This document shows positions 28,384 through 46,092 of a stretch of 62,070 nt of DNA, one piece after another. The stretch covers positions 1 through 62,070 of the forward strand of contig CAZDVO010000008.1 in NCBI GenBank assembly GCA_964508905.1. The letters are read 5' to 3'. Position numbers and translations under genes: made by a program. Under the pieces are notes generated by a model that saw only the letters and a list, made by a program, of their open reading frames with translations, did no database searches and had not been told where the DNA came from. Positions within the stretch are counted from its first letter, which is position 1. The number at the start of each line of letters is the position of its first letter. Source of the stretch: an uncultured bacterium (GTDB lineage: Bacteria; Omnitrophota; Omnitrophia; Omnitrophales; Aquincolibacteriaceae).

Positions 28384-28415
28384 TTTCTAAAAGAGTCTGT
28401 TCGAAGGAGTTGTTC

Positions 28416-29081: not shown

Positions 29082-29580
29082 GCGTTCTTTGGGAAGGGCC
29101 CTCAAAAGCATTGCTTGGTTCGTTGTTGCCGCGCTCTTTTTGAGCGCGCTCTCTCTTGGGCTCAATTTCTGGGTATACCGGGAACTTCAAGCGCGTCTCA
29201 AGATCCAGTTGTCGGGGAATTATATCCCTTCGCTTTTTATTCCTTCCTTTGAAGTGCGGCAAGGGTCCTTTATCTGGGACGATCGTGTTCATCTGGTGGA
29301 CGGGAACTTCAAGGTGACTTTTGACCCTTTGACGCTCATCTCTCAGCGGGGGATACGCGTGATCCTCAAAAGCCGGGCGAGCAAGATCCGGTTCCTTGGG
29401 AGTTGGGCCCTGCAACAGGGGCTTGAAGCGGCGACGGTCGATTCTCTTATCGCCGATATCATTCTGGGGCGCCGCGGCCTCGCCGCGGTCAATGAGGTTG
29501 AAGTGAAGTCGCAAACTTTTCAGTTTTCGTTGAAGAATGTCGATAAAAAAACAACCCAGGAACCATCGAGGTCTCTCTGA
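29065..29580 (+). CDS. Hypothetical membrane-anchored protein (N-terminal TM, beta-rich remainder)
   Basis: 171-aa ORF overlapping the upstream gene and ending 3 nt before murE. Confidence 0.65.
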   Translation: MARPAKRSLGRALKSIAWFVVAALFLSALSLGLNFWVYRELQARLKIQLSGNYIPSLFIPSFEVRQGSFIWDDRVHLVDGNFKVTFDPLTLISQRGIRVILKSRASKIRFLGSWALQQGLEAATVDSLIADIILGRRGLAAVNEVEVKSQTFQFSLKNVDKKTTQEPSRSL

Positions 29581-29583
29581 TCC

Positions 29584-31074
29584 ATGCGCAAACGTCTTGA
29601 TGATCTGTTCAAAGGCATTCCGATCCTCGAAAAATACCACTGGGACCCCAAGCGCATTTTTAATAAGGTTACTTCCGATTCCCGTGCCGTTGAGTCAGGG
29701 GATATCTTTGTCGCCTGCCCGGGGAGCCGCATGGATGGGCATGATTTTCTGGGGCAGGCGATTTACGCGAAAGCGTCTGTCGTCGTTTTTGAGAAAGACC
29801 CTGAGATCACCCTCCCGTCGCATGTGACGGGCGTCCGCGTTCGCGATGCCCGGTCCGCGCTTGCGGTGCTGCTTAACCGCTTCTACGATTGTCCCGACCA
29901 GAAGATGAAGTTGATCGGGGTGACCGGCACGAACGGGAAGACGACGACGACGTATCTTATGCACCGGCTCCTTCGTGAAAAAACGCCGTCCGCCTATCTT
30001 GGAACGTTGTGGTACGAGTTGCCTTCCGGAAAAGTGCCCGCCATGAATACGACGCCGGGGCCTGAAGTGCTGATCCCGATGTTCCATCAGATGGAGCAGG
30101 AGGGCGTGAAGCATTGCGTCATGGAAGTGTCCTCGCATGCGATCTCCCAGAAGCGCGTTCATGGCCTTGAATTTGAACTGGGGGTCTTTACCCAGCTGAC
30201 CCAGGACCATCTCGATTTTCATCACAGCATGGAAGAATATTTTCAGGCGAAGCGGAGTTTTTTTTCGGGGCCCCTCGCTCCTCAGAAGATGTTGTTCAAT
30301 AAGGACTGCCCGTACGGTCGCCGTCTGCTGGAAGAATTTCCCCAGGCCAAGAGTTTTAGCGTTCTCGGGGAAGCGGATTATTACGCGAAGGATCTCCAGA
30401 TGAGCTTTCAGGGAAGTCGTTTCGTGATGTGTTATCGCGGTAAGGAGCTGCCGTTCCAGATCCGCCTGCCCATGCGCTACAACATTTCTAACGCGTTGGC
30501 GGTGCTGAGTTCGATCCATTTGCTGGGGTTCGATCTGAATGATTTCCGGGGCGCACTGGAAGAGATCCCCGCGATCCCCGGGCGCATGGAACGGATCGGT
30601 GCGGCGACGGATTATACGGTCTTTGTTGATTACGCCCATACGCCCGATGCCCTTGAACAGGTGCTCCATGATGCGAAACAGATGAAGCCGCATCGCATTA
30701 TCTCCGTTTTTGGCTGCGGGGGCGATCGGGATCGAGGTAAACGTCCGCTAATGACCCGTGCCGTGTGCCGGTACTCGGATGTGGTGATCATGACGTCCGA
30801 CAATCCTCGCTCCGAGGATCCGGAAGAGATCCTGCGTGATATGCGTACCGGGCTTCCGCAGCCGGTGCCGCAGTCGGGATCCATCTATGAGATCCTGGAT
30901 CGTCAGGAAGCCATCGAAAAATCCGTTGCGCTTGCCAAACCCGGCGATGTCGTTTTTGTCCTCGGGAAAGGGCATGAGGATTATCAGATCCTTGGCGACG
31001 GGAAGATCCCTTTTAGCGATCGTGAAGTGATCGATGCCGCATTGAAAAGACGCAGCCGTGTTTTCCTTTCCTGA
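29584..31074 (+). CDS. murE: UDP-MurNAc-dipeptide:meso-DAP ligase
   Basis: GVTGTNGKTTT, MEVSSH, DYAHTPD, FGCGGDRD, SDNPR (mDAP specificity motif) and GKGHE. Confidence 0.96.
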   Translation: MRKRLDDLFKGIPILEKYHWDPKRIFNKVTSDSRAVESGDIFVACPGSRMDGHDFLGQAIYAKASVVVFEKDPEITLPSHVTGVRVRDARSALAVLLNRFYDCPDQKMKLIGVTGTNGKTTTTYLMHRLLREKTPSAYLGTLWYELPSGKVPAMNTTPGPEVLIPMFHQMEQEGVKHCVMEVSSHAISQKRVHGLEFELGVFTQLTQDHLDFHHSMEEYFQAKRSFFSGPLAPQKMLFNKDCPYGRRLLEEFPQAKSFSVLGEADYYAKDLQMSFQGSRFVMCYRGKELPFQIRLPMRYNISNALAVLSSIHLLGFDLNDFRGALEEIPAIPGRMERIGAATDYTVFVDYAHTPDALEQVLHDAKQMKPHRIISVFGCGGDRDRGKRPLMTRAVCRYSDVVIMTSDNPRSEDPEEILRDMRTGLPQPVPQSGSIYEILDRQEAIEKSVALAKPGDVVFVLGKGHEDYQILGDGKIPFSDREVIDAALKRRSRVFLS

Positions 31075-32455
31075 TATCAGCCGTCTTCTGGATGTCCGTC
31101 CGGAATTCCATGACCCTCAGCTGAAGTCGCGAAGTCTGTCCATCGATACGAGGACCCTAAAGCCGGGCGACCTGTTCGTCGCTTTTAAGGGGGAACAGAC
31201 CGATGGACATGATTTTTTGTCGGACGCTTTCGAGAAGGGCGCCTCCGGCGCCTTGATCGATGCGGTCCGGAAAGAATCGGTTTTAGCGCGGCTCGCCGCC
31301 TCGAAGAAACCGGTTCGGAATGTGTTTCCGGTGGCCGACCCTCAGGCCGCGATGACTCTCCTCGCGGAGGCCTGGCGAAAAACGCTTTCAGTCCGGGTGA
31401 TCGGTATTACCGGCAGCGTGGGAAAGACCACGACCAAAGAATTCCTTTTCTATTTGCTTCGCCAGAAGGCCTCCGTGCTTGCAACCGCAGGGAATCTGAA
31501 CAATCATTTAGGCGTTCCCATCATGATCTCGAGGCTTGAGCCCTCGCATCACTATTGTGTGATGGAAATGGGGGCCAGCCATCCGGGGGAGATCCGGTAT
31601 CTTGCCGGATTGGCGCGTCCTTCGGCCGGGATATTGACTCCGATCGGTTCGGCCCACCTGGAAGGGTTCGGAAGTCTGGAGAATGTTTATACGACCAAGT
31701 TGGAGCTTGCGGATTTTTTAGATCCCCAGGATCCTTTGGTGGTACGTGCCGATGATCCGGATCTTCTTGCCCGATTGAAAAAGAGCGGACGGCGGGCGGT
31801 CACGGTCGGTTATGACGAAAACGCGGACTATCGGATCGAGGATGTTAGGGCCGATTCGGGGATGATTACTTTTAGGTTGCAGGGCGCAGGCCCTTTCTCT
31901 TTTCCCGGACAAGCGCCCTTCCTGGCCTTGAATGCGGGGCTTGCGATCGCGATGGCGCGAAGCCTGGGGATCGCCTGGGCGGAGATCCCTCGCAACTGGG
32001 AGGATGTGGGCTTTGCTTCGGGAAGATTTCGTGAGACAATGCTGTCCAACGGGATTCGCGTGATCGACGACAGCTATAACGCGAATCCCGTTTCCTTCGA
32101 GAACGCCTTGAACGCGTTCCAGACGCTCCCGGTGTCCGGCAAAAAGATCGTTGTGTTCGCGGATATGCGGGAGTTGGGCCCTGAGGAAGTACGCTTTCAC
32201 AAAGAACTTGGCGCGCGGATCCTGGTGTCTGGTGTGGATCTTGCTCTCGCGTACGGGGCCCTGGCATCGTACAGTATTGTGGCGGCCCAAAAGGGTATGG
32301 ACGCGCGTCATTTCAAGGATAGCGGCGGGGCTCTCGAAGCATTGCGGGCTGCGCTTCAGCCGGGGGACGCGGTGCTCTTTAAAGGTTCGCGCAGTATGCA
32401 TGTCGAGAAAGTTCTGGAAGGGATTCGCTCCGTTTCTTTTTCACCAAGATCATAA
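31058..32455 (+). CDS. murF: UDP-MurNAc-tripeptide:D-Ala-D-Ala ligase
   Basis: ITGSVGKTTTKE, GNLNNHLG, EMGASHPGEI, DDSYNANP and KGSR motifs. Confidence 0.95.
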   Translation: MFSFPDISRLLDVRPEFHDPQLKSRSLSIDTRTLKPGDLFVAFKGEQTDGHDFLSDAFEKGASGALIDAVRKESVLARLAASKKPVRNVFPVADPQAAMTLLAEAWRKTLSVRVIGITGSVGKTTTKEFLFYLLRQKASVLATAGNLNNHLGVPIMISRLEPSHHYCVMEMGASHPGEIRYLAGLARPSAGILTPIGSAHLEGFGSLENVYTTKLELADFLDPQDPLVVRADDPDLLARLKKSGRRAVTVGYDENADYRIEDVRADSGMITFRLQGAGPFSFPGQAPFLALNAGLAIAMARSLGIAWAEIPRNWEDVGFASGRFRETMLSNGIRVIDDSYNANPVSFENALNAFQTLPVSGKKIVVFADMRELGPEEVRFHKELGARILVSGVDLALAYGALASYSIVAAQKGMDARHFKDSGGALEALRAALQPGDAVLFKGSRSMHVEKVLEGIRSVSFSPRS

Positions 32456-32476
32456 TCATCGGGCCGAAACTGAACC

Positions 32477-33562
32477 ATGTTTTATTTTTTACATCATCTC
32501 GCAGATCAATCGATCATTTTTAACATCTTCCGCTACATTACGTTCCGTTCCGCGGCAGCGAGCATTACGGCGTTCTTTCTGTCCTTATGGCTCGGGCCTC
32601 GCTGCATCGCGTGGTTGAAACAACTTCGGGCGGTGACCAATCAGGAACGTGCGCACGCCGATGCCATCCATGAGCATTTCAAGCATAAGAAGGATGTTCC
32701 CATGATGGGGGGCGTCCTCATTGTGGCGAGCGTGGTGATCGCCTCGCTCTTGTGGGGGAATCTGACGAACCGTTTTATGGGGATGATGATCGGGGTCATG
32801 CTCTGGTTCGGTTTCGTCGGCTTTCTGGATGATTGGCTCAAGATGCGATCAAAAAGCTCGGACGGGTTGAGTTCTCTGACCAAATTATTGGGGCAGGTAT
32901 TCATGGGGCTCGCGATCGGGGTCTATCTTTATTGTGATCCCGGTTTTGATAAATGGCTGTATGTGCCTCTTTTGAAAAAAGGGGCCTTCTATCTCGGCAT
33001 CTTCTTCATCCCCTTCGTGGTGTTGGTTCTAACGGGGACTTCGAATGCGCTCAATCTGACCGATGGTTTGGACGGGCTTGCGATCGGCTGCACCATGTTC
33101 GCCGCGACGACCTTTGCCTTGATCACTTATGTGACCGGTCACTTTGATTTTGCCGCGTATCTCGCCATTCCGCATATCCCCGAGGCGGGGGAAGTGACCG
33201 TGTTTTGCGCGGCGCTAGCCGGAGCGAGCGCGGGATTTCTTTGGTTCAACTCTTATCCGGCCGAGGTCTTTATGGGCGATACCGGTTCGCTCTCACTCGG
33301 CGGGGCGCTGGGCGCGATCGCGGTGTTGACCAAAAAAGAGCTGGTCCTTGTGATCGTCGGCGGCATCTTTGTGTGGGAAGCCCTTTCCGTCATTCTCCAG
33401 GTCACGAGTTTCAAGCTTCGCAAGAAGCGGATCTTTCTGATGTCCCCCTTTCATCATCATCTTCAGCGCAAAGGGTGGCCGGAGTCCAAGATCACGACCC
33501 GGCTTTGGATCATTGCCTTTATTCTCGCGATCGTCGGTCTCAGCACACTGAAGGTTCGGTGA
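32477..33562 (+). CDS. mraY: Phospho-N-acetylmuramoyl-pentapeptide transferase
   Basis: PMMGG, GFLDD, NALNLTDGLDGLA, FMGDTGS and PFHHH motifs. Confidence 0.97.
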   Translation: MFYFLHHLADQSIIFNIFRYITFRSAAASITAFFLSLWLGPRCIAWLKQLRAVTNQERAHADAIHEHFKHKKDVPMMGGVLIVASVVIASLLWGNLTNRFMGMMIGVMLWFGFVGFLDDWLKMRSKSSDGLSSLTKLLGQVFMGLAIGVYLYCDPGFDKWLYVPLLKKGAFYLGIFFIPFVVLVLTGTSNALNLTDGLDGLAIGCTMFAATTFALITYVTGHFDFAAYLAIPHIPEAGEVTVFCAALAGASAGFLWFNSYPAEVFMGDTGSLSLGGALGAIAVLTKKELVLVIVGGIFVWEALSVILQVTSFKLRKKRIFLMSPFHHHLQRKGWPESKITTRLWIIAFILAIVGLSTLKVR

Positions 33563-33563
33563 T

Positions 33564-34844
33564 ATGAAGCCTGCCGCTGGGACCAAAGTCGCGATCCTAG
33601 GATTGCGGGATACCGGTTTTTTGAGCGCCCTTTTTCTCCATGAGAACGGCTATCGTGTTTTCGTCTCCGATCTGGCTGATTCTCCGGAAGTGCGGGGGAA
33701 TGTGGCCAAGCTTGTGGAACGAGGGATCCGGGCGGAGAGCGGACAGCACTCCTTTGAGGAGATCCTTTCCGCGGATTGGGTTTTGATCTCTCCGGGGATC
33801 CCTCCCGGGGCGAAGATATATCAGGCGCTTCTCGCCGCAAAAAAGCCGATCTATAGCGAGATCGAGGTCGCGAGTTGGTTCTCGAGGGCGAAGACCGTCG
33901 TGGCGGTTACCGGGTCCTGCGGTAAGACCACGACGGCAACACTCATCGCCAAGATCGTCGAAGCGAACGACCGGCCGGCGGTCCTCTGCGGGAATATTGG
34001 GAATCCTTGGATCGGCGAACTTGGCAAGATCACCCCGGAAACGGTCGTGGTGCTCGAGGTCAGCTCCTTTCAATTGATGCATTGCGTGAATTTTGCCCCG
34101 TCCATTGGGCTGCTTTTGAATGTTTTTCCAAATCACATGGATTGGCACGTGGACATGAAGGAATATTCCCGGGCCAAGCTTAATATTTTCCGTTCCATGG
34201 ATGAGTCTGGCGTTATGATCTGCCAAAAAGCGGAAGAACTCGCGCTATTTCCCGATTTTGAATCCCGGGCCCGGCGCGTTTATTTCGATGAACGGTTGGC
34301 GTCCAACCCGAACGAGGCCGCACTGTTGTGCGCGGCGGAGGCGCTGGGGTGTTCCGCGGCCTCGGTCCGACAGGCGTTGGAGTCCTTCCAGGGGCTTGAG
34401 CATCGGATGGAAAAATTCGCGGAGCAGGACGGCGTTTCATTCGTCAATGACTCCAAAGCTACGACGACAGCCTCGTTGGCCTGGGCGCTCGAGAAATGCC
34501 GCGACGGGGCGGTGGTGTTGATCTGCGGCGGGAAATACAAAACTGACGTCCGTGATTTCAGGACCCTGCGGGATCTCGTGGCCCAGAAGGTTCGCTGTGC
34601 GATCCTGATCGGGGTTGCGCGGCCCCTGCTTCGGGAAGCTTGGCAGGGCGCGGTGGAGATGGTTGAGGCGGAGACGCTGGATGAAGCTTGCCGCTTGAGT
34701 CTCGAGAAGGCTCGGGGTGGGGATACGGTGCTTTTGTCGCCGGCGTGTGCGAGTTTTGATATGTTCAAGCATTATCAAGAACGCGGGAAGTTTTTTAAAG
34801 AGTTGATCCTGAAACGTTTGGGATCCTCGGCGGTTCGGGGGTAA
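33564..34844 (+). CDS. murD: UDP-MurNAc-L-Ala:D-Glu ligase
   Basis: SPGIP, TGSCGKTTT, LEVSSFQL, HRME, NDSKAT and LSPACASFD motifs. Confidence 0.96.
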   Translation: MKPAAGTKVAILGLRDTGFLSALFLHENGYRVFVSDLADSPEVRGNVAKLVERGIRAESGQHSFEEILSADWVLISPGIPPGAKIYQALLAAKKPIYSEIEVASWFSRAKTVVAVTGSCGKTTTATLIAKIVEANDRPAVLCGNIGNPWIGELGKITPETVVVLEVSSFQLMHCVNFAPSIGLLLNVFPNHMDWHVDMKEYSRAKLNIFRSMDESGVMICQKAEELALFPDFESRARRVYFDERLASNPNEAALLCAAEALGCSAASVRQALESFQGLEHRMEKFAEQDGVSFVNDSKATTTASLAWALEKCRDGAVVLICGGKYKTDVRDFRTLRDLVAQKVRCAILIGVARPLLREAWQGAVEMVEAETLDEACRLSLEKARGGDTVLLSPACASFDMFKHYQERGKFFKELILKRLGSSAVRG

Positions 34845-34846
34845 TC

Positions 34847-35947
34847 ATGTCCAAAGAAGCGCGTCTTTTGTTCATCGTGACCTACTGCTTGGTGGGGATC
34901 GGGATCGTGATGATCTATAGCGCCAGCGCGGTCCTCGCGCACGACTGGCACGGGGATGAGATGTTCTTTTTGCTCCGTCAGGTCGTTTATGTGGTCCTCG
35001 GGACGATCGGATTTTTTATCGCCGCGGCGTTGCCGATTAAGTTCTATCAGCACAATGCCCGGGCGTTCATGCTGCTTGCGATCATGCTGTTGATCGGCGT
35101 CTATCTTCCCGTGATCGGCCACTCGGCGGGGGGCGCGCGCCGATGGCTGCATTTCGGGGCGTTCCAGTTCCAGCCCGTGGAGTTTGCGAAACTTGCCTGT
35201 TGCATCTATCTGGCGGATTACATTGGCCGTAAGATCGCGTGGGTGCAGAAGGGGGATATCCTTGTTTTTGTTCCGCCGCTCATTCTTGTGGGGCTGGTTT
35301 GCGGCTTGACCCTCATGGAGCCGGATCTGGGGTCGGTGGCCTTTATCGTGATGATGACGTCGATCATCTTTTTTGTTTCGGGCCTTCGCCTTCGCTATGT
35401 GTTCGGGGCTATCGGGGTACTCTTGCCGGCGCTCTATTTCTTGATCATCCGCGTTCCGTACCGCCTGAGCCGTCTTGAAGCCTACCTGAATCCCTGGGAG
35501 GATCCGCTCGGCTCTGGGTTCCAGATCATCCAGTCCTTTCTAGCCTTTGCTTCGGGGGGGATCCATGGCGTTGGTCTCGGGCAGAGCACGCAGAAGCTTT
35601 TTTATCTTCCCTCGAGCCACAACGATTTTATTCTGGCGGTGATTGGCGAAGAACTTGGGATGATCGGGATCCTGGTCGTGATCGCCCTGTATATTCTTTT
35701 TTTTCTTTGCTGTATCCGCATGGCCCGCAAGATCGATCAGGCTTTTGAGAAATTGTTGGTCACCTCGATCACGATGCTCATCATTCTTCAGACTGTGTTC
35801 CACATGATGGTTGCGACGGGGCTTGTTCCGACTAAAGGGTTGCCGCTTCCGTTCATCAGCTACGGAGGAAGCTCCATCCTGATCAACTTGATCGCGGTAG
35901 GGATTCTGATGGCGGTCGACCGGCGTCACAAAAGCCGCAACAGTTGA
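34847..35947 (+). CDS. ftsW: SEDS peptidoglycan polymerase FtsW
   Basis: GARRW, FQPVEFAK, EPDLG, HNDFI, EELG, PTKGLPLPFISYGGSS motifs; located in the dcw cluster. Confidence 0.95.
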   Translation: MSKEARLLFIVTYCLVGIGIVMIYSASAVLAHDWHGDEMFFLLRQVVYVVLGTIGFFIAAALPIKFYQHNARAFMLLAIMLLIGVYLPVIGHSAGGARRWLHFGAFQFQPVEFAKLACCIYLADYIGRKIAWVQKGDILVFVPPLILVGLVCGLTLMEPDLGSVAFIVMMTSIIFFVSGLRLRYVFGAIGVLLPALYFLIIRVPYRLSRLEAYLNPWEDPLGSGFQIIQSFLAFASGGIHGVGLGQSTQKLFYLPSSHNDFILAVIGEELGMIGILVVIALYILFFLCCIRMARKIDQAFEKLLVTSITMLIILQTVFHMMVATGLVPTKGLPLPFISYGGSSILINLIAVGILMAVDRRHKSRNS

Positions 35948-35948
35948 T

Positions 35949-37097
35949 ATGGAACAGTCCCTTTCTTCGGCCGCACCCCAGGCCATGTCCCTTGTTGTTT
36001 ATGCCGGCCCGACGGGGGGGCATGTTTTTCCGGCCCAGTCTTTCAGCGAGGGATTTCGCAGACATTTTCCGGGGGCTGCGATCCATTTGGTGACGTGCCA
36101 TCGGGCTAAAAGGCTGGTCGATAAGATGCCTCCCGGGATCTTCCTCTCCGTTTGTTATTTGCCGGAGTTCGGTTTTCCGACCGGGTTTTCGCTCAAAACC
36201 TTGAAGCCTTTTTTTATTTTCCCGTATCTTTTGATCCAGGCCTTCTTTTTTCTGCGGCGGATCCGGCCTGAGCTCTGCGTGGGGTTCGGAAGCTTTGTTT
36301 CCTATCCGGGGATGATGATGGCCTCCTGGCTCAAGATCCCCACGATGATCCACGAGCAGAATAAGGTCCCGGGGAAGGCGACCCACTGGCTTTTGCCCCA
36401 TATGGATGTTGTTGCCGAAAGTTTTGAAGGAACGCGATTTTTACGTAAGCCGAAGAGTCTTTACACCGTGGGTCTTCCGCTGAGGTCGCGTATGGCGGCT
36501 GCTTTGGCCGAGACGAGGCCGGATGGAACGCCTCGTCCTTTCACGATCCTGGTCGTGGGCGGCTCTCAAGGTGCGAGAGGGTTGAACGCGATCGTGGTCG
36601 ATGTGATGGCTTCTCTGTCGGATGAAGAAAGGTCCAGAATAGCCGTTATTCATATTACCGGAGAGCGGGACCGTGGTTGGGTGACGGAACGCTATGCGGA
36701 GTTGGCTTTATCGAGTGAAGTTCATCCGTTCTATGAGGTGATGGAACAGCTTTTTCAAAGGATCGATCTTGCTGTGACGAGGGCCGGGGCCAACACGCTT
36801 TTTGAATTGGCGGCGTTCGGGATCCCGTCGCTTGTGATCCCTTATCCTCATGCCGGCGGGCATCAAAAGTATAATGCGGAAGGATTTGCGGAAAAGGGCG
36901 GGTTGCTTTTTCACGAAGAATCTCAGGAGGCCAAGCCGTGGTTGCTGGCCCATCTCAAAAGTTTCATCGAAACGCCGGGACATCTTGATCCTATTGCTGC
37001 GGCGATGAAAAAATTGGCGAAGCCCGGTGCCACGGATGCATTGATCGAAATAGCGAGAAAGTTGATCAAAGAACATGAAGAAGGTCATAAGCGATAA
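35949..37097 (+). CDS. murG: Undecaprenyl-PP-MurNAc-pentapeptide GlcNAc transferase
   Basis: TGGHVFPA, HEQN..PG, GGSQGA, RAGA and HQKYNA motifs. Confidence 0.93.
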   Translation: MEQSLSSAAPQAMSLVVYAGPTGGHVFPAQSFSEGFRRHFPGAAIHLVTCHRAKRLVDKMPPGIFLSVCYLPEFGFPTGFSLKTLKPFFIFPYLLIQAFFFLRRIRPELCVGFGSFVSYPGMMMASWLKIPTMIHEQNKVPGKATHWLLPHMDVVAESFEGTRFLRKPKSLYTVGLPLRSRMAAALAETRPDGTPRPFTILVVGGSQGARGLNAIVVDVMASLSDEERSRIAVIHITGERDRGWVTERYAELALSSEVHPFYEVMEQLFQRIDLAVTRAGANTLFELAAFGIPSLVIPYPHAGGHQKYNAEGFAEKGGLLFHEESQEAKPWLLAHLKSFIETPGHLDPIAAAMKKLAKPGATDALIEIARKLIKEHEEGHKR

Positions 37098-38478
37098 TCT
37101 TATTCGGGACAGCCACGAAGCCTATCTGATCGGGATCGGTGGAGCGGGGATGAGTGGTCTTGCCCGTATTTTAAAACACCTCGGGCTTTCGGTTTTTGGA
37201 TCGGATTATAAAGAGACGCGGGTCACGCAAAGCCTCCGACGTGCGGGGATCCCGGTCCATATCGGCCAGAAGACCATCGGATTCGGCGAAGCGGACCTGA
37301 TCATTTATTCCACCGCGATCCACAAAGATCACCTGGAACTCAAAGAGGCCCGCCGTCTAGGGCGGAAGGTTCTCCATCGCGCGGAGGTGCTTGCCTCGCT
37401 GCTGAATCACGCGGAAACTTCGATCGGCGTTCTGGGGACCCATGGCAAAACCACGACATCGGCGATGGTTTCGCACGTCCTGTCGCAGATCGGCGCTAAT
37501 CCGACCTGTTTTGTTGGCAGTGATATGTTGAATTACGACACGAATTTTATGGCGGGGACTCCGGATTATTGGGTGAGCGAAGTGGATGAGAGCGACGCCT
37601 CCCACGAGCTTTATGCTCCGCATTATTCGATCATCACGAACCTGGAACCGGAGCACCTGGACCATTATAAAACGTGGGAGAACCTGACCGCGTCCTTTCG
37701 CCGGTTTTTGAGCCAGGTCCATGACCCGGGGCTCGTTTCATACTGGGGCGATGACCCGAATCTCACGATGCTTGTGAAAGAAAGCGGGAGACCTTCGGTC
37801 AACTTTGGTTTTTCCGAGGAGTGCGCGTACTCGGCTCAAAATATCCGCCTCCATGCTTTTGGCTCAGAATTCGATCTTTATGAGTCCGGTTTTTTTAGCA
37901 GGCATATGAAGCTGGGGGTGCCTGGACGTCATAATATTGCGAACGCGCTTGCGACGCTATCGGTGATGCTCCATCTCGGGTTTGATCTCGAACTTGTAGC
38001 GGAAGCGCTCGCGACGTTCAAGGGGACTCGTCGTCGCATGGAATTGAAAGGGCAAACGCCGCAATTTCTGGTGTTGGACGATTATGCGCATCATCCGACT
38101 GAAGTGAAGGCGGTGCTTCGCGCGCTTCACGAGGCGGGAAAATATGTCCGGGTTGTTTTTCAGCCACATCGATACAGCCGGACGAAGAACCTTTGTAAGG
38201 AGTTCGGTCACGCATTTGATGACGCCGAAGAGGTCGTGCTGACGGATATCTATGGCGCGGGGGAGTCGAACCCGGAAGGCGTGGCGATCGATCATGTGTA
38301 TGAAGAGGTTATGAGCGCAGGGCATCCGCACGTCCGGGTGGTGCGCCGGGAGGCTATTCTGTCGTATCTTTTGGACCATCCGCTGGAAAAAGGTGTGATG
38401 ATCTTTATGGGGGCGGGGGATATCGGGGAGATCGCCGGCGAGTTTGTCGGGCGTCTTGCCCCTTGTGCGACCGCGTGA
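37075..38478 (+). CDS. murC: UDP-MurNAc:L-Ala ligase
   Basis: IGIGGAGMSGLA, GTHGKTTT, EVDESD, DDYAHHPTE, FQPHRYSR and MGAGDI motifs. Confidence 0.96.
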   Translation: MKKVISDNLIRDSHEAYLIGIGGAGMSGLARILKHLGLSVFGSDYKETRVTQSLRRAGIPVHIGQKTIGFGEADLIIYSTAIHKDHLELKEARRLGRKVLHRAEVLASLLNHAETSIGVLGTHGKTTTSAMVSHVLSQIGANPTCFVGSDMLNYDTNFMAGTPDYWVSEVDESDASHELYAPHYSIITNLEPEHLDHYKTWENLTASFRRFLSQVHDPGLVSYWGDDPNLTMLVKESGRPSVNFGFSEECAYSAQNIRLHAFGSEFDLYESGFFSRHMKLGVPGRHNIANALATLSVMLHLGFDLELVAEALATFKGTRRRMELKGQTPQFLVLDDYAHHPTEVKAVLRALHEAGKYVRVVFQPHRYSRTKNLCKEFGHAFDDAEEVVLTDIYGAGESNPEGVAIDHVYEEVMSAGHPHVRVVRREAILSYLLDHPLEKGVMIFMGAGDIGEIAGEFVGRLAPCATA

Positions 38479-38553
38479 TTTTTCTCTTTTGAGGGCAGGC
38501 CCCGAAGGAGAGGAGTCTCGTGGCTTTTTTTATTCACAGAGAGAAAGGTTTTT

Positions 38554-39519
38554 ATGCCTCAAGAATTACTAGCAGATCCTAAGTTCGCTTTTTTGAAAAA
38601 GATGCGCGTGGGGGTGGTCCGGGGTGGTATTTCCGCGGAGCGCCGCATCTCGCTTCGTTCCGGCCGCGCCGTGATCCGCGCGCTTCGCCGTGTCGGTGTT
38701 CGCGTTTTTCCGGTGGATCCGGCGGACAAAAAACACTTTTGGGGTAAAGTCTCCCAGGCTGATATCCTTTTTATCGCATTGCACGGGATGGGGGGGGAGG
38801 ATGGCTCTTTTCAACGGATGTTGGAGAAAAAGAAAGTTCTGTTCGCGGGATCACCTTCAGCGGCCTGCCGGAAGAGTTTCGATAAGGAAACCAGTAAACA
38901 TTATTTTGTGAAGCTTGGGGTCCCGACTCCGGACTATGCGATGCTCGATCGGAAAAACTGGAAACGCGTCGCAGCCGCGTTCCCGACACCGTATTTCGTG
39001 AAGCCTCTTGATGGTGGTTCGAGCCAAGGTGTCTTCCTCGTTGAAGATTTTCGCGGATCGGCCGACAAATTAAGACGGTCTCTTTTGCGGTTCGGGCGGC
39101 TTTTGATCGAGAAAAGGATCGTGGGGCGTGAATTGACCGCCGGACTTCTTGGAGAATGCAAACTTCCCGTTGTGGAAGTGAAGCCCTCGCGGCCCTTTTA
39201 CGATTATAAGGCCAAGTATACGAAAGGGATGACGATCTATGAAGTACCGGCGACGATCCCCGCCGCGGTCGCACGGAAGATCCAGAACATCGCTTACCGG
39301 GTTTACCGGGGGTTGGGGCTTCGCGGGTTTTCTCGGGTGGATGTGATGCTCGACCGACGGAACCGTCCGTATGTGTTAGAAGTCAATAGCATTCCCGGTT
39401 TGACCGAATTCAGCCTGCTGCCCAAGGCGGCTCGTGCGATCGGGATCAGTTTCGAGCAATTATGTTTGGAAGTGCTTCGCGAAGCTTATGAACGTAAACG
39501 AAAGCGGAACGCCTCATGA
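38554..39519 (+). CDS. ddl: D-alanine--D-alanine ligase
   Basis: GGISAER.ISL.SG, LHGMGGEDG, DKETSK, VKP..GGSS, FYDYKAKY and LEVNSIPG motifs. Confidence 0.95.
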   Translation: MPQELLADPKFAFLKKMRVGVVRGGISAERRISLRSGRAVIRALRRVGVRVFPVDPADKKHFWGKVSQADILFIALHGMGGEDGSFQRMLEKKKVLFAGSPSAACRKSFDKETSKHYFVKLGVPTPDYAMLDRKNWKRVAAAFPTPYFVKPLDGGSSQGVFLVEDFRGSADKLRRSLLRFGRLLIEKRIVGRELTAGLLGECKLPVVEVKPSRPFYDYKAKYTKGMTIYEVPATIPAAVARKIQNIAYRVYRGLGLRGFSRVDVMLDRRNRPYVLEVNSIPGLTEFSLLPKAARAIGISFEQLCLEVLREAYERKRKRNAS

Positions 39520-40331
39520 GTAAGAAGAAGAATAAGGGTGGAAAAAAAAGAGGGTTTTTTTCTTGGCTAGGAGCGCTATGCCTCGGGTTTGTGTGGCTAC
39601 TCTGGAAGCTTTTGCCGTGGATACTTGTCGCGGGAGCCATCGCCTATGGCGGTTGGGTCGTTCGAAAAGCGTTGTATCAAGATCCGCGGCTGAAAGTCCA
39701 GGAGATCCGGATCGTTCCTCCGGATGTATTGTCGCCGCAAAGCGCTCGGACGCTCGAAGATAAGATCCTCGGGAAAAACATCCTGTTGCTCGATCTTCAC
39801 AAGATTGAAAAGACCATCGAGCTCGGGCCCGGCGCTCAGAGCGTTCGCATCGTTCGTGAAATGCCTTCAACGGTTCGAATTGAGATCCAGAAACGCCGGC
39901 CGATCGCGAACGTTCAACTGCGGCCGAACGGCCCTTATGCCGTCACCGCGGAAGACGGGTTCATCATTGAAGTGCGCCCCGAACTGGATCCTGCTTGGAT
40001 CCTGATCGAGGATTTTAGTGAGCCCCTCAAAGAACCGAGGGTTGGGACGCGGCTTCAGAATAAAGGTTTTCCGGAAGCGTTGCGCTTCATGAAGTCGTTT
40101 CGCCGTCATGAGCTGGCGCGCCGGGAATCGGTGACCCGGATCAGTCTGGACCCCTACGGGAACGTAACCGTGAGACTTGGGGAAGGGCCCGATTTTCAGA
40201 TGGGCCGCAAAGCCTCCGAGCGTCTTTCGTTCCTGACAAAAGCCGTTTATCTTTTTAAGACCGAGCCCCGCGAAACGATCGAATATATGGACCTGCAATA
40301 TGACCGCGTTGCTGTGAAAAGGAAATCATGA
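39516..40331 (+). CDS. ftsQ: Cell division protein FtsQ/DivIB
   Basis: Basic N-terminus, one TM segment, POTRA-like segment (VREMPSTVRIEIQKRRP), C-terminal EYMDLQY; position between ddl and ftsA. Confidence 0.82.
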   Translation: MSKKKNKGGKKRGFFSWLGALCLGFVWLLWKLLPWILVAGAIAYGGWVVRKALYQDPRLKVQEIRIVPPDVLSPQSARTLEDKILGKNILLLDLHKIEKTIELGPGAQSVRIVREMPSTVRIEIQKRRPIANVQLRPNGPYAVTAEDGFIIEVRPELDPAWILIEDFSEPLKEPRVGTRLQNKGFPEALRFMKSFRRHELARRESVTRISLDPYGNVTVRLGEGPDFQMGRKASERLSFLTKAVYLFKTEPRETIEYMDLQYDRVAVKRKS

Positions 40332-41578
40332 CCGCTCCTGTTGATCTGAAGAATAAATGTGTTGTGGTCTATGTCGGAACTCGCAAGTTGATGGTCATGC
40401 TTGGGGATATCGGGACCGCCAATCCTCACGTGCTTCGCAGCGAGGAGGTTCTGTTCCCGGACGGTTTTGAAAAAGGGTTGGTGTCCAATCTTCAAAACGC
40501 GAGTTCCTCGCTCGAGAAGCTGATGAACGCGATCCTGCCTCCCGAGGCGTGGGATCAGGTGCCGGTCTACGTGGTGTTGGGGAATAGCCGGTTCAAAATG
40601 TACCGGTTCTCCAGTTGCGAATATTTCACTCCGGAGCGCCGGACGATCACGACCCATGAAGTGCAGTCCGTGGTCCAGCAGACCCGGAATGTCGCGACCT
40701 TACCGCTGACCGAATCGATCCTCCAGGCGATCCCGGAATCATTCCTGGTGAATGATATGCCCGCGGTGCGGAATCCGGTCGGACTTGAAGCGGAACGTTT
40801 GGGTGTGACCCTTCAGATCTATACCATGGAATTCCAATCCTTCCGCAATATCGCGAAGGTTTTCGAAACGCTGGACCTCGAAGTTGAAGGCTATTTCCCC
40901 AAGATCCTTCCTCTTTCGGAAGCGGTTTTAAGTGACGCGGAAAAACAGGAGGGGGTCATGATCCTGGATATCGCCGACGATGCGACGCAATTGGTCCTTT
41001 GGAAGAACGGCCTTTTGGCAGGACTTCGGACGCTTCCGATGGGCGGTCACTTTCTCACGCAGTGTCTGGCCAAGGACTGGAACATCGAGGAACGGGATGC
41101 CGAGAAGGTCAAAGAGAAATTCGCGACGTTGGATGCCACGGAGCAGGAAAGCGAAGAACTGGTGCCGCTGGTGACCCGTAACGACAAAGTGCAGCAGTCG
41201 ATCCCGCGTAAGGAGTTTCTGGAGAAATTCTTCAAGCACGCGCACGGCTGGATGAACAACATCCTCGAATCCTCGGACGTTTTCATGCAGGAGGAGAAGA
41301 TCCGCTACCCGCATGTTCTTTTTACCGGGGGAGCCGTGATGACCGAAGGGTTCTTGGAGTGGGCCCAGAAAGAATTCTCCCGGGACGGAAAGATCGGGAT
41401 ATCCCGCCAGGTCGAGGCCGCTCAGGAACTTGTCCGCGATCCTTCGATGGCTCCGGCTCTCGGCATGTTCCGCTGGGCGATGAACTACAAGCGGGCGCAG
41501 GAAGCGCTTTTTGCTCCCCGCGGCTTTTTTGCGCGTATCGCGGCTTCCGCGAGGGCCTGGTTCACGAATTATTTCTAG
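40328..41578 (+). CDS. ftsA: Divergent FtsA-like protein
   Basis: FtsA hallmarks (VRNPVGLEAERL, EKVKEKF, TGG, C-terminal amphipathic helix) and position after ftsQ. The nucleotide-binding motifs are altered. Confidence 0.8.
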   Translation: MTAPVDLKNKCVVVYVGTRKLMVMLGDIGTANPHVLRSEEVLFPDGFEKGLVSNLQNASSSLEKLMNAILPPEAWDQVPVYVVLGNSRFKMYRFSSCEYFTPERRTITTHEVQSVVQQTRNVATLPLTESILQAIPESFLVNDMPAVRNPVGLEAERLGVTLQIYTMEFQSFRNIAKVFETLDLEVEGYFPKILPLSEAVLSDAEKQEGVMILDIADDATQLVLWKNGLLAGLRTLPMGGHFLTQCLAKDWNIEERDAEKVKEKFATLDATEQESEELVPLVTRNDKVQQSIPRKEFLEKFFKHAHGWMNNILESSDVFMQEEKIRYPHVLFTGGAVMTEGFLEWAQKEFSRDGKIGISRQVEAAQELVRDPSMAPALGMFRWAMNYKRAQEALFAPRGFFARIAASARAWFTNYF

Positions 41579-41705
41579 GCGCTAGGTCAGGGGAGCCTAC
41601 TGTCTTCAACTACTTTGCTTTTTATGCGAAATTCGCCTTTCTTTTTCCTTCCCGAAATCTTATAATCGCCCATCCGTTTTCTTATTAACCCGATTTTTAT
41701 TCTTT

Positions 41706-42803
41706 ATGGCCATGACTTTGGAAACACAACCGACTCAGCTTCCGCTTCACGACGAACATCTTCGCAAAGGTGCCCGCATGGGCGATTTCGGGGGATGGCT
41801 TGTCCCACTCTACTACACCAGTATCATGGAAGAGCATGCCGCGATCCGGACGAAGCTCGGGATCTTCGATATTTCTCATATGGGGGAATTCATGGTGGAA
41901 GGCCCCCGCGCGGTGGCTTATCTCGAAGCGATCCTGCCTCGTCGCGTGACTCCGGTGAAATTGAGCCAAGCGATCTATATGCCGCTCGTGAATGATCAGG
42001 GCGGGATGGTGGACGATATTATCGTCTATCGCATGGAAGAGCAGAAATTTTTGATCGTTGTGAATGCTGGGAATATCGCAAAGGATTTTGCCTGGTTCAA
42101 GGCCCGCTTGACCGAGAGTGTGACGCTTACCGATCTGAGCGAGGAGATGGGGCTTTTGGCGCTTCAAGGCCCTCTGAGCCAAACCGTTCTTCTCGAATGT
42201 TTTGGCGCGTTCTATAAGGATCTCCGTCGGTTTCACTATAAGGATTTCGAAGGGGGCATGATCGCCCGGACCGGATACACCGGGGAAGACGGCTACGAGA
42301 TCATGGTCCCGAAGTCCAAGCTCAAGCAGGTTTGGGATGTTCTTTTTCGTGTGGGGGAGAAGCATGGCCTTTTGCCGATCGGTTTTGGAGCTCGCGATAC
42401 GCTGCGTCTTGAAGCCGCGATGCCTCTTTATGGCCACGAGCTGAACGACGAGTTGACGCCGCTTGAGGCGGATCTTGGATGGGCGATCGATCTGACGAAG
42501 GATCGTTTCCCCGGCAGCGACATCCTCAAAGAGCAGCAGCGGACAGGGATCCGGAAAAAAAGGATCGGATTTGAAATGACCGAGCGAGGGATCCCGCGTC
42601 AAGGTTTTGAGATCCAAAAAGATGGAAAGGCCGTTGGGACAGTGACAAGCGGCAGTTTTATTCCTACGACCGGAAAAAATATTGGCATGGCTTATGTCGC
42701 AGCGGCGGAAGCGCAGCCCGGCAATGTGCTAGATGTAATGATCCGCGGCAAAGCGGTCAAGGCCACTGTGGTTTCGCTACCTTTTTATAAGAGAAAAGGG
42801 TAA
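41706..42803 (+). CDS. gcvT: Glycine cleavage system T protein (start 41706 or 41712)
   Basis: FGGW.VP..Y, FDISHMG, DDIIVY, ALQGP, ARTGYTGEDGYE and GARDTLRLEA motifs. Confidence 0.97.
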   Translation: MAMTLETQPTQLPLHDEHLRKGARMGDFGGWLVPLYYTSIMEEHAAIRTKLGIFDISHMGEFMVEGPRAVAYLEAILPRRVTPVKLSQAIYMPLVNDQGGMVDDIIVYRMEEQKFLIVVNAGNIAKDFAWFKARLTESVTLTDLSEEMGLLALQGPLSQTVLLECFGAFYKDLRRFHYKDFEGGMIARTGYTGEDGYEIMVPKSKLKQVWDVLFRVGEKHGLLPIGFGARDTLRLEAAMPLYGHELNDELTPLEADLGWAIDLTKDRFPGSDILKEQQRTGIRKKRIGFEMTERGIPRQGFEIQKDGKAVGTVTSGSFIPTTGKNIGMAYVAAAEAQPGNVLDVMIRGKAVKATVVSLPFYKRKG

Positions 42804-42854
42804 AATGCCCGCCATTCTCTTCAGTATTCTTCTCGATCTTTAACGGAGGCAATC

Positions 42855-43247
42855 ATGAATTTCCCTGAGACGTTACGTTATACCAAAACCCATGAATGGA
42901 TCGTCGCGACCGGCGCCAAGGCGAAGGTGGGCGTGACCGAATACGCGCAAAAAGAGATCTCGGATGTGGTGTTCGTCGAGTTGCCGAAGGCGGGGCAGGC
43001 TGTCCAGCAGGCCAAGACGGCGGCGGTTGTGGAATCCGTGAAGGCCGCGTTCGATATTTACGCTCCCGTCTCCGGAAAGATCTCGGACGCCAATAAGGCG
43101 CTCGAATCGAATCCCGCGCTGATCAATCAGAGCCCTTATGCCGATGGCTGGCTTTTCGAGATCGAACTCTCGAACCCTTCGGAGATCAACACCCTCTTGA
43201 CCCCGGCGCAGTATGCGGACATGATCGCTCAAGCGCCGAAGCACTGA
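42855..43247 (+). CDS. gcvH: Glycine cleavage system H protein
   Basis: YTKTHEW, VESVKAA (lipoyl Lys) and NQSPYADGW motifs; GGAGG RBS. Confidence 0.97.
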   Translation: MNFPETLRYTKTHEWIVATGAKAKVGVTEYAQKEISDVVFVELPKAGQAVQQAKTAAVVESVKAAFDIYAPVSGKISDANKALESNPALINQSPYADGWLFEIELSNPSEINTLLTPAQYADMIAQAPKH

Positions 43248-43261
43248 TCTGAAAGAACCTC

Positions 43262-44599
43262 ATGCCTTACCTCTCCCTTACGGATCAGGAAAAAAGAGAT
43301 ATTCTCTCTGAGATCGGCGTTCATTCTTTCAACGACCTGATCCGTGATATTCCCGTCTCGCTACGCGACCCCAAGATGGCCTTGCCCTCTTCCTTAAGCG
43401 AGTTGGAGGTCCAAGATCTCATGACAAAACTCGGGCGCAAGAACACCTCGACGAAGGATGCGCTCTCCTTTCTGGGGGCGGGGAGCTATGAACATTTCAT
43501 CCCTGCGGCGGCGCTCGAGATCATCGGACGCCAGGAATTCTTGACCGCCTACACGCCTTATCAGCCCGAAGCTTCTCAGGGGACTCTCCAGGCGATCTAT
43601 GAGTATCAGAGCCTGATGACCGAGCTGACGGGGCTCGATGTTTCGAATGCCTCCCATTACGATGGCGCGACGGCGCTTGCCGAAGCCGCGCTTGTGGCTC
43701 TCCGGCATACCGATCGGACGAAGCTTCTTGTGGCTCGTTCCCTTCATCCTCACTATCGTGAAACGATCAAGACGTATCTTGCCGGAACCCCCTATGGGAT
43801 CGAAGAATTGGGTTTTGATGCTAAGGGGAATTTTGACAAGGAAGCCTTGACCCGCAAGCTGGACGGAACGGTCGCCGGCGTGATCTTTCAGACGCCGAAC
43901 TTTTTTGGCAATATCGAGGACCTTGAAGGGGTGAGTGAAAAGATCCGTGCGAATGGATCGCTGCTGATCCTTACAGGAGATCCTCTTTCCTTCAGTTTGT
44001 TCCGGTCCCCCGGTGAATGGGGCGCCGATATCGTCGCGGGAGAAGGGCAGCCTCTTGGGATGCCGATGGAATTCGGCGGGCCTTATCTGGGTTATTTTGT
44101 GACCACGCAGGCTTTGATGCGCCGTATCCCCGGAAGGTTGGCAGGGCTGACGCAGGATGCGGACGGGAAGCGGGCGTTCTGTCTCACGCTTCAGGCCCGG
44201 GAACAGCATATCCGTCGCGAACGCGCCGCGTCGAATATTTGCAGCAATCAGGCCCTTTGCGCTTTGGCCGCTTGCGTGACGATGACGCTACTTGGCAAAC
44301 AAGGGATCCGGGAACTGGCCGAGGTGAACTGGGACCGTGCTTCCTACCTGCGCGAGAAGATCTCGAAACTCAAGAATTTTGAAGTGGATATGGACCAGAC
44401 GATCTTTAATGAATTCCGCGTGAGATCCCGTAAGCCCTTCTCAAAAGTCGAAGAAAAATTGGCGGGGCAAGGGATATTCCCCGGGGTGGCGCTCGAGCCG
44501 TTCTATCCGGAGCTGAAGGACCAGTTCCTTGTCTGCGCGACCGAAACGAAATCGAAAGAGGACCTTGATCGGTTCGTGGAGGCACTGTCCCAATGCTGA
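43262..44599 (+). CDS. gcvPA: Glycine dehydrogenase subunit 1
   Basis: FLGAGSY, TAYTPYQPE.SQG, SHYDGATA, GGPYLG and TLQAREQHIRRERA.SNICSNQ motifs. Confidence 0.96.
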   Translation: MPYLSLTDQEKRDILSEIGVHSFNDLIRDIPVSLRDPKMALPSSLSELEVQDLMTKLGRKNTSTKDALSFLGAGSYEHFIPAAALEIIGRQEFLTAYTPYQPEASQGTLQAIYEYQSLMTELTGLDVSNASHYDGATALAEAALVALRHTDRTKLLVARSLHPHYRETIKTYLAGTPYGIEELGFDAKGNFDKEALTRKLDGTVAGVIFQTPNFFGNIEDLEGVSEKIRANGSLLILTGDPLSFSLFRSPGEWGADIVAGEGQPLGMPMEFGGPYLGYFVTTQALMRRIPGRLAGLTQDADGKRAFCLTLQAREQHIRRERAASNICSNQALCALAACVTMTLLGKQGIRELAEVNWDRASYLREKISKLKNFEVDMDQTIFNEFRVRSRKPFSKVEEKLAGQGIFPGVALEPFYPELKDQFLVCATETKSKEDLDRFVEALSQC

Positions 44600-46092
44600 T
44601 CTCCCAGGATGACCGTCTTAGTTTTGAAAAGAGCAAGCCCGGACGCCGTGCCGTCCGTTTGCCTGAGTCGCGTTTCTTTTCATCGCCCCCCCCACGGAGC
44701 GTTCCGCCGGGGCTTTTGCGCCAGACTTCGCTCGGATTTCCTGAGCTGAGCGAGCCGGATATCGTTCGCCATTTTATCAACCTTTCCAGGAAGAACTATT
44801 CAGTCGATACCCATTTCTATCCGCTTGGCAGCTGTACGATGAAATACAATCCCAAGGTCAATGAATGGGCCGCGCGCCAGGACAAGTTCACGGCGCTCCA
44901 TCCGTTCCAGAAGGACGCAACGGCTCAGGGGATGATCGAGATCCTATGGGAACTCGAAGAAGGTTTGAAAGAGATCACCGGGATGGACCGGTTTACGCTG
45001 CAGCCCGCGGCGGGGGCTCATGGCGAGCTGACCGGGATGATGTTGGTGAGGGCCTATCACGCTTCCCGCGGCGATCGTCAACGTACCAAGGTGCTGGTTC
45101 CCGATTCCAGCCACGGGACGAATCCCGCGAGCGCGGCGCTTTTGGGCTTCCATGTAGTGGAGGTCAAATCGGACAGCCATGGCCGCGTGGATATGGCCGA
45201 TCTTAAGCAGCATCTTGATGCACAGGTTGCGTGTCTCATGTTGACGAACCCGAACACGCTGGGCCTTTTTGATACGAATATCCTTGAGATCGCCAAGCTT
45301 GTGCACGCGCAGGGAGGTCTTCTCTATTACGACGGCGCGAACCTGAACCCGCTGCTTGGGATAGCCCGCCCGGGGGATATGGGCTTTGATATCATCCATG
45401 TGAATTTGCATAAGACGTTCTCGACCCCTCACGGCGGCGGCGGGCCCGGCTCGGGTCCTGTCGGCGTTAAAAAACACCTGGCGGAATTTCTCCCGGGCCC
45501 CCTTGTCCAAAAGACCTCAAAAGGGTTCGGCTGGGCGGCTCAGGGGGCGAGATCCATCGGGCGCGTGAAATTGTTCCATGGCAATGTCGGGGTCATGATC
45601 CGCGCGTACGTTTACCTCAAGATCCTCGGTAAGGAAGGCCTTCGGAAAGTGAGCGAGGCTGCGATCTTGAATGCGAATTACATGAAGGAAAAGTTGAAGG
45701 ATGTCTATAAGGTCGCGACGGAAGGGCCGTGTATGCACGAGTTCGTTTTGTCGCTGAAACCTTTCGCGGTCCACGGGGTCCACGCCGGCGATGTTGGGAA
45801 GCGTCTCTTGGATTACGGTTTTCATGCCCCGACCGTCCATTTTCCGTTGGTCGTTCCCGAGGCTCTGATGATCGAGCCGACGGAGACCGAAGCGAGTGAA
45901 ACGATGGACCAATTCATTGAAGTCATGAAGACGATCGCTCAAGAGATCTTGACGGACCCTGAGTTGGTGAAGACCGCGCCGCATACGTTGCCGGTGCGTC
46001 GTCCGAATGATGTGCTTGCCGCGCGTAAACCGATCCTGTCCTATCGGGATCAATTGCGCGAGAAAGTTCTGCTGGCTGAAGCCACCGCATGA
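44593..46092 (+). CDS. gcvPB: Glycine dehydrogenase subunit 2
   Basis: PLGSCTMKYNP, QPAAGAHGE, SHGTNPAS, YYDGAN, NLHKTFSTPHGGGGPG and EPTETE motifs. Confidence 0.96.
   Translation: MLISQDDRLSFEKSKPGRRAVRLPESRFFSSPPPRSVPPGLLRQTSLGFPELSEPDIVRHFINLSRKNYSVDTHFYPLGSCTMKYNPKVNEWAARQDKFTALHPFQKDATAQGMIEILWELEEGLKEITGMDRFTLQPAAGAHGELTGMMLVRAYHASRGDRQRTKVLVPDSSHGTNPASAALLGFHVVEVKSDSHGRVDMADLKQHLDAQVACLMLTNPNTLGLFDTNILEIAKLVHAQGGLLYYDGANLNPLLGIARPGDMGFDIIHVNLHKTFSTPHGGGGPGSGPVGVKKHLAEFLPGPLVQKTSKGFGWAAQGARSIGRVKLFHGNVGVMIRAYVYLKILGKEGLRKVSEAAILNANYMKEKLKDVYKVATEGPCMHEFVLSLKPFAVHGVHAGDVGKRLLDYGFHAPTVHFPLVVPEALMIEPTETEASETMDQFIEVMKTIAQEILTDPELVKTAPHTLPVRRPNDVLAARKPILSYRDQLREKVLLAEATA

Follow-up and report, generated by a model that had tools for sequence, protein, structure and literature searches.

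The best-understood task of FtsA, an actin-like protein of bacterial cell division, is the tethering of FtsZ to the membrane. In the Escherichia coli protein, the phosphate-1 residue Glu14 contacts Mg2+, and its replacement (E14R) makes ATP hydrolysis 60% slower, leaves the Michaelis constant (Km) for ATP unchanged and abolishes polymerisation, vesicle remodelling and FtsZ recruitment; several FtsAs, moreover, bind ATP without detectable hydrolysis. Within the Planctomycetes-Verrucomicrobia-Chlamydiae (PVC) group, Planctomycetes, Omnitrophica and Chlamydiae have no FtsZ, and of these three only Planctomycetes and Chlamydiae lack FtsA as well (Pende et al. 2021). That survey, carried out with hidden Markov models (HMM) and with absences checked by tblastn, lists FtsZ as NA for Omnitrophus magneticus, GWA2_41_15, RIFOXYB12_FULL_50_7 and SM23_29, and reports FtsA in three of these four genomes. 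The sole 'Omnitrophica' genome with FtsZ, OLB16, belongs to a lineage called misclassified by Seymour et al. 2023. The present analysis concerns the ftsA gene of contig CAZDVO010000008.1, an uncultured bacterial sequence of 62,070 nucleotides which was analysed as a whole and is referred to below as the window.

The gene encodes the FtsA orthologue of an uncultured Candidatus Omnitrophota bacterium living in wastewater or digesters, the sequencing runs holding the locus being wastewater, digester, landfill and manure metagenomes. Its most distinctive trait lies in the phosphate-1 motif, where the acidic position is occupied by Tyr in 100 and by Phe in three of 106 family members, and by Asp or Glu in none. 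The same position is Asp in 97% of 110 full-length canonical representatives, as opposed to an acidic residue in 0% of 25 representatives of the subfamily, here called Tyr-type. A preliminary description of this DNA, made from the sequence alone, had pointed to the motifs VYVGTRK and LDIADDATQ; both are present, and the distribution of the tyrosine speaks against chance. The phosphate-1 change is the real anomaly of the nucleotide site, and what the alignment demonstrates at this site is limited to the loss of the predicted Mg2+-contacting acid.

The second motif has to be read with greater caution. Across the family, the phosphate-2 turn consists of Ala or Ser followed by two acidic residues, and the changes with respect to the canonical motifs are real, but the comparators originally chosen, which correspond to the motifs of E. 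coli and Bacillus subtilis, were too narrow: the phosphate-1 motif of E. coli is LEIGTAK, with Glu rather than Asp, and neither Staphylococcus aureus FtsA (IDIGEDVTQ) nor Thermotoga maritima FtsA (VNLGYNFTG, in a sequence identical to 1E4F) has GGGT. Since the structures of the latter two were solved with ATP or its analogues, and since they deviate to an equal extent, the phosphate-2 change says little about ATP, and its use as proof of ATP loss was discarded. Among the 106 members, most of the remaining contacts are kept (G17 in 104, T/S18 in 89, K/R20 in 102, D214 in 104 and T220 in 80), and the Gly preceding the adenosine strand (E. coli G331, found in 93% of canonical proteins) is His in the Tyr-type family. 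The earlier suggestion of an ATP-independent FtsA is unproven and is weakened by the ATP-bound proteins with similar loops, by the retention of G17, T18, K20, D214, T220 and the Thr-Gly-Gly motif, and by the unchanged Km of E14R. We infer that the site has been remodelled, that the nucleotide is probably still held, because most contacts are conserved, and that the chemistry of the Mg2+-binding acid may no longer be used.

The extent of the subfamily was defined by an exhaustive HMM search over 1.84 billion representatives, which returned 9375 matches, of which the best 150 were aligned. In these best 150, a clean split was observed: proteins scoring at least 206 bits have a phosphate-1 Tyr (in rare cases Phe, His, Leu or Ser), and those at 196 bits or less are canonical FtsAs with Asp. 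The Tyr group includes more distant lineages which keep a Gly-Gly turn in phosphate 2. A total of 111 cluster-level relatives share 38-95% identity and are nearly all ~415 amino acids (aa) long, with canonical FtsAs surfacing in the same search only at ~22% identity. Their source names are all Candidatus Omnitrophota or Omnitrophica save one (Verrucomicrobiae), and a scan in which each GTDB species was represented by one genome yielded 56 loci, of which the named ones are all Omnitrophota, in agreement with the PVC affiliation proposed in the preliminary description. So far, the Tyr-type subfamily has been found only in genomes labelled Omnitrophota, and no mention of it was found in the searchable literature.

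The assignment to FtsA relies on profiles and on fold. The protein passes the Pfam models FtsA (45.3 bits, cut-off 31.8) and SHS2_FTSA (40.1 bits, cut-off 25.4), and remains under the cut-offs of the equivalog model TIGR01174 (157.6 bits against 175.85) and of NF007009 (89 against 409), which points to a divergent FtsA subfamily and not to the standard equivalog. Over its full length, the family profile can be aligned with the structures of E. coli, Vibrio and Xenorhabdus FtsA (E ~1e-44). An AlphaFold2 model built on the family alignment reached a mean predicted local distance difference test score (pLDDT) of 90.2 and a predicted template modelling score (pTM) of 0.86; in Foldseek its first 19 matches are FtsA chains (template modelling score, TM, 0.74-0.84), followed by PilM (0.56-0.61) and then by MreB. 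The FtsA architecture of the Tyr-type proteins is complete, comprising the actin-like core, the 1C insert, the 2B subdomain and the C-terminal helix.

Two further elements of the protein are relevant to its partners. An arginine of subdomain 2B reportedly contacts the C-terminal peptide of FtsZ, a contact which we take, as a lead rather than a result, to be made at the E. coli Arg300 position. Arginine is found there in 76% of the 110 canonical and in 0% of the 25 Tyr-type representatives. At the other end of the protein, a helix is predicted at residues 400-415, behind a linker with a pLDDT of ~60, and a W-F-x-N-Y-F or W-x-x-N-Y-F tail is conserved across more than 50 species. The preliminary description had regarded the amphipathic C-terminal helix as kept; the predicted helix and its conservation agree with this, but the amphipathicity is modest, as the hydrophobic moment (0.33-0.40, compared with 0.57 in E. 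coli and 0.80 in T. maritima) does not rise above that of shuffled sequences. The segment would be better called a hydrophobic, aromatic helix of membrane type.

The other side of the question is the absence of FtsZ. Searching the window by tblastn with the FtsZ of E. coli and Bacillus subtilis gave no match (best E = 1.8), and three FtsZ queries, run by tblastn against 72 loci with flanks of +/-10 kb (~1.06 Mb), recovered ftsZ only in the positive control, a canonical ftsA-ftsZ pair (L009). The gene following ftsA in the window is gcvT, at 41706-42803 (Pfam GCV_T, 1.5e-84), as originally described, and the lack of an ftsZ after ftsA extends to the flanks of ~70 related loci. Where at least 2 kb of downstream sequence was available, gcvT lies within 1.5 kb of ftsA in 33 of 45 species loci, and ftsZ in none. 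Gene order after ftsA takes several forms, with gcvTHP-lplA-uvrD in four loci (L007, L008, L010 and L011), a giant open reading frame (ORF) in L004-L006, and a T2SSE ATPase together with a radical S-adenosylmethionine (SAM) gene in L068. One of the published genomes with FtsZ listed as NA, RIFOXYB12_FULL_50_7, is itself among the loci (L013), and its FtsA is 87% identical to that of the window. It is quite likely that ftsZ is absent from the whole genome, and division without FtsZ but with FtsA kept is plausible, being already hinted at in published tables.

The remodelled gene shows the marks of an old and settled state. Relative to an orthologue with 86% identity, dN is 0.083 and dS ~2.5, a saturated value, giving a dN/dS of ~0.03; in the same pair of genomes FtsA (86% aa identity) is more conserved than the products of ftsQ (76%), ddl (75%), murC (82%), ftsW (83%) and gcvT (79%). 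The ftsA variant is functional and lineage-specific, and it is under strong purifying selection. The dN/dS, a check put forward in the preliminary description, thus reveals no decay, and the accompanying idea of a lineage partway through losing FtsZ has to be abandoned: the tyrosine and the ftsA-gcvT junction span loci whose FtsAs are 36-88% identical to that of the window, so that a transitional state is ruled out. Four runs labelled as metatranscriptomic also yielded, at minimal depth, short contigs that match ftsA (40348-41548) at 99% identity or more; they are a weak hint of expression in situ, with DNA carry-over as a possible source.

A tentative order of events can be proposed from the nearest Asp-type lineage (P0141 and P0260-P0262), in which phosphate 1 and phosphate 2 are both canonical. 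In this lineage a radical-SAM gene, yggS, proC and yggT come after ftsA, with no ftsZ (L072, 1-5035), and the radical-SAM protein shares 48% identity with the one encoded behind a Tyr-type FtsA retaining the Gly turn (L068, 5406-9107). Taken together, these similarities suggest that ftsZ would have left the cluster first, with the replacement of Asp by Tyr and then the loss of the Gly turn coming later, and the Asp-type lineage may represent an intermediate stage; the contigs of this lineage are at most 5 kb long and taxonomically unassigned.

The explanation that best accommodates these data overall, and in which we place moderate confidence, is that of a conserved Omnitrophota FtsA subfamily, remodelled at three sites in an FtsZ-free lineage and acting as a scaffold. 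Of its elements, the identity and fold of Tyr-type FtsA are shown, as are its conservation, the purifying selection acting on it and its synteny. The remodelled sites are the phosphate-1 acid, replaced by a fixed Tyr, the Gly turn of phosphate 2, turned into Ala-Asp-Asp, and the arginine of 2B, which is gone. In a lineage presumably without FtsZ, FtsA would for that reason be relieved of its role in tethering the Z-ring, and could serve as a membrane-anchored scaffold, probably self-assembling, which links FtsQ to the peptidoglycan synthase FtsW at the place where these very small cells divide. Nucleotide would probably still occupy the pocket, and Mg2+-dependent hydrolysis or switching would likely have lost strength or given way to a state stabilised by the Tyr. 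A more specific version, in which peptidoglycan-walled nanobacteria throughout the Omnitrophota with Tyr-type FtsA divide by an FtsA-centred, FtsZ-free divisome, with FtsA as a Tyr-locked, hydrolysis-independent membrane polymer that positions FtsQ and FtsW and with 2B re-purposed for a new partner, is possible but decidedly tentative.

Several points weigh against the scaffold explanation. A PVC survey of 2025 calls the division and cell wall (dcw) genes 'highly conserved' in Ca. Omnitrophota, ftsZ not being itemised. For this organism the absence of FtsZ rests on the 62-kb window, and the related genomes are all metagenome-assembled genomes (MAGs). Nucleotide binding, polymerisation and the partners of the Omnitrophota FtsA are all deduced properties, the C-terminal helix is just modestly amphipathic (moment 0.33-0.40), and the link between the lost arginine and the binding of the FtsZ tail has the standing of a lead.

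The most serious alternatives accept the protein as FtsA and differ on its biochemistry or on its partner. In a stronger form of the preliminary suggestion, nucleotide binding would have been lost altogether and the protein would be a pseudo-ATPase and a purely structural membrane anchor, and it is true that three features of the cleft differ jointly from the canonical state (Tyr for the phosphate-1 acid, Ala-Asp-Asp for the Gly turn and His for E. coli G331) and that a bulky tyrosine could occupy the site of Mg2+ and the gamma-phosphate. We nonetheless regard it as unlikely, since the near-invariance of G17, T/S18, K/R20, D214, T220 and Thr-Gly-Gly, at a mean column identity of 56%, is hard to explain with an empty pocket, since similar phosphate-2 loops (GEDVT in S. 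aureus, GYNFT in T. maritima) bind ATP, and since E. coli E14R binds it with unchanged Km. Ordinary Z-ring division, with a relocated ftsZ, a divergent FtsA which tethers FtsZ and uses ATP normally, and motif changes due to neutral drift, is rather improbable. It draws on the sampling, which covers 62 kb of this genome and +/-10 kb of its relatives, on the possible incompleteness of the MAGs, on the 2025 survey, which places Omnitrophota with the FtsZ-using phyla as to dcw conservation, and on the wide variation of phosphate-2 loops among working FtsAs. Against this stand the HMM and tblastn surveys, with FtsZ in 0 of 4 genuine Omnitrophota genomes (one of them with the 87%-identical FtsA, and the exception, OLB16, misclassified), and the absence of ftsZ from its usual position after ftsA in each of the 45 species loci whose sequence continues downstream. 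Furthermore, as the phosphate-1 acid is never present and the 2B arginine is lost in every Tyr-type representative, these are fixed changes and not drift.

Two other readings deny the gene a role in division, or any role. That it could be PilM, or another actin-like paralogue lying beside dcw genes, is suggested by a weak Pfam match to PilM_2 (29.0 bits against a cut-off of 27, over 67 residues) and by the name 'pilus assembly protein PilM' given to one relative in its NCBI record; this is very improbable, as the TIGR01175 pilM model scores 20.7 bits against a cut-off of 133, no pilNOPQ genes are found among its neighbours, which are ftsQ and gcvT, ftsQ always precedes the gene with a coupled start, and an FtsA-like C-terminal helix of membrane type is predicted. 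The TIGR01175 score and the Foldseek ranking, in which every FtsA chain precedes PilM, led to the rejection of this identity. A decaying relic left behind after the loss of FtsZ might account for the divergence from canonical FtsA (~20% identity, with a score below the TIGR01174 cut-off), but it is scarcely credible for a gene with an intact frame and a length that stays at ~415 aa over more than 100 clusters, a confident fold prediction, a dN/dS of ~0.03 and a conservation exceeding that of most neighbouring essential genes, to which the small metatranscriptome contigs add weakly; dN/dS and conservation eliminated the pseudogene.

Should the more specific version, with an FtsA-centred divisome, be correct, Omnitrophota would be the sole known lineage in which FtsA was kept after the loss of FtsZ. 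If FtsZ is absent, the clade would isolate the FtsZ-independent functions of FtsA, i.e. self-assembly, membrane remodelling and the recruitment of the septal synthase, and would provide a natural experiment on the purpose of the nucleotide site. The fixed change from Asp to Tyr falls on a residue at which mutation severely impairs E. coli FtsA, and is therefore a concrete, testable handle. There is also a consequence for annotation, as proteins of the family are at present inconsistently named: public records (P0024, P0030, P0062, P0081 and P0093) include 'hypothetical protein', 'cell division FtsA domain-containing protein' and 'pilus assembly protein PilM', along with one Verrucomicrobiae MAG.

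The features of the locus are collected in Table 1. ATGA overlaps occur at both the ddl/ftsQ and the ftsQ/ftsA junctions, making ftsA the final gene of a translationally coupled ddl-ftsQ-ftsA unit, and ftsQ lies directly upstream of ftsA in 65 loci, an order common to all relatives inspected. The preliminary description had drawn the feature from 40328 to 41705; its start holds, but the reading frame ends at 41578 and the remainder is spacer. The TATAAT hexamer, behind which gcvT was there said to lie, is in place, but the promoter scan called no complete -35/-10 promoter and no terminator in the ftsA-gcvT spacer, and since the hexamer is without a -35 partner, an independent gcvT promoter is not evidenced. 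The start of gcvT itself is ambiguous, as the longest ORF begins at 41706 (365 aa) and that annotated on the identical contig L001 at 41778 (341 aa); the later start, 72 nt downstream, would lengthen the spacer to ~200 nt.

Table 1. Positions of ftsA, its sequence motifs and the surrounding genes in the window
Feature	Positions	Strand	Details
ftsA, Omnitrophota-type ('Tyr-type') FtsA, 416 aa	40328..41578	+	ATG start; assigned by Pfam, fold, selection
Phosphate-1 hairpin VYVGTRK, residues 14-20	40367..40387	+	Tyr15 codon 40370-40372
Subdomain 1C (SHS2 insert), FtsA/PilM hallmark	40637..40825	+	PF02491, residues 104-166; pLDDT 84-92
Phosphate-2 loop LDIADDATQ, residues 213-221	40964..40990	+	Asp214 and Thr220 kept; Gly turn replaced by Ala-Asp-Asp
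His304 at E. coli Arg300 position, subdomain 2B helix	41237..41239	+	Representative alignment
Adenosine motif Thr-Gly-Gly, retained	41324..41332	+	G334 in 106/106; G335 in 89/106
C-terminal hydrophobic/aromatic helix, putative membrane anchor, GFFARIAASARAWFTNYF, residues 399-416	41522..41575	+	
AT-rich spacer, 127 nt, 60% A+T, at the usual ftsZ position	41579..41705	+	TATAAT at 41661-41666
gcvT-gcvH-gcvPA-gcvPB, conserved downstream neighbours where ftsZ is expected	41706..46092	+	Pfam
ftsQ (POTRA)	39516..40331	+	Pfam POTRA_1; ATGA overlap with ftsA start
dcw block murE-murF-mraY-murD-ftsW-murG-murC-ddl	29584..39519	+	NCBIfam and Pfam matches

Further observations concern the rest of the cluster. 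The dcw block begins at murE, and the sequence upstream (28410-29583) contains a gene of the OmpA family and an ORF of 171 aa that matches no Pfam model, and no mraZ, rsmH, ftsL or ftsI; no ftsI (PBP3) gene was found in the window as a whole. murB is absent from the murC-ddl gap (38479-38553) and from the entire window. It occupies the murC-ddl spot in 37 of 49 related loci and is not there in the other 12, and may have been moved or lost in a sub-lineage retaining the other genes of the peptidoglycan pathway. Farther downstream, a 2582-aa ORF (49712-57460, + strand) lies between uvrD and an acyltransferase gene and contains an ART-PolyVal ADP-ribosyltransferase domain (aa 968-1054) and a weak Fic match. 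As uvrD and the acyltransferase gene adjoin in L010 and L011, where FtsA is 86% identical, the ORF has the appearance of a ~8-kb insertion that codes for a giant, polyvalent protein of toxin-like type. Giant ORFs (>2000-3900 aa, running past the ends of the loci) were also seen immediately downstream of the dcw/gcv region in several relatives (L004, 11549-21248; L008, 19011-21287), in agreement with the giant ORFs published for Omnitrophota.

Compared with known systems, the protein is closest to canonical FtsA (E. coli 7Q6D, Vibrio 7Q6F, T. maritima 1E4G/4A2A and S. aureus 3WQU), with which it shares the domain order 1A-1C-1A-2A-2B-2A, the SHS2 1C insert, the Thr-Gly-Gly motif, the phosphate-2 Asp and a predicted C-terminal helix of membrane type, as well as the position of its gene after ftsQ at the 3' end of the dcw cluster. 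It differs from them in its identity of only ~15-21%, in having Tyr for the Mg2+-contacting Asp or Glu and Ala-Asp-Asp for the Gly turn, in lacking the arginine at the E. coli R300 position and a downstream ftsZ, and in its score below the TIGR01174 cut-off. PilM (2YCH/5EOU) has a similar fold with a 1C-type insert and, as an ATP-binding protein without a clear hydrolytic role which forms a static cytoplasmic scaffold, offers a likeness in function; on the other hand, it is structurally more distant (TM 0.56-0.61), has no C-terminal membrane helix and sits in pilMNOPQ operons. E. coli FtsA(E14R) has the same Mg2+-contacting phosphate-1 acid substituted, but there the change is a laboratory one and deleterious, with no rings, no polymerisation and poor FtsZ recruitment, whereas here a residue that is not acidic has become fixed as the wild type and is kept by purifying selection, presumably with compensating changes elsewhere. 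Finally, Chlamydiota and Planctomycetota are likewise PVC lineages with genes for peptidoglycan synthesis and without FtsZ; in them FtsA was lost together with FtsZ, whereas Omnitrophota retain FtsA, FtsQ and FtsW in a coupled dcw block.

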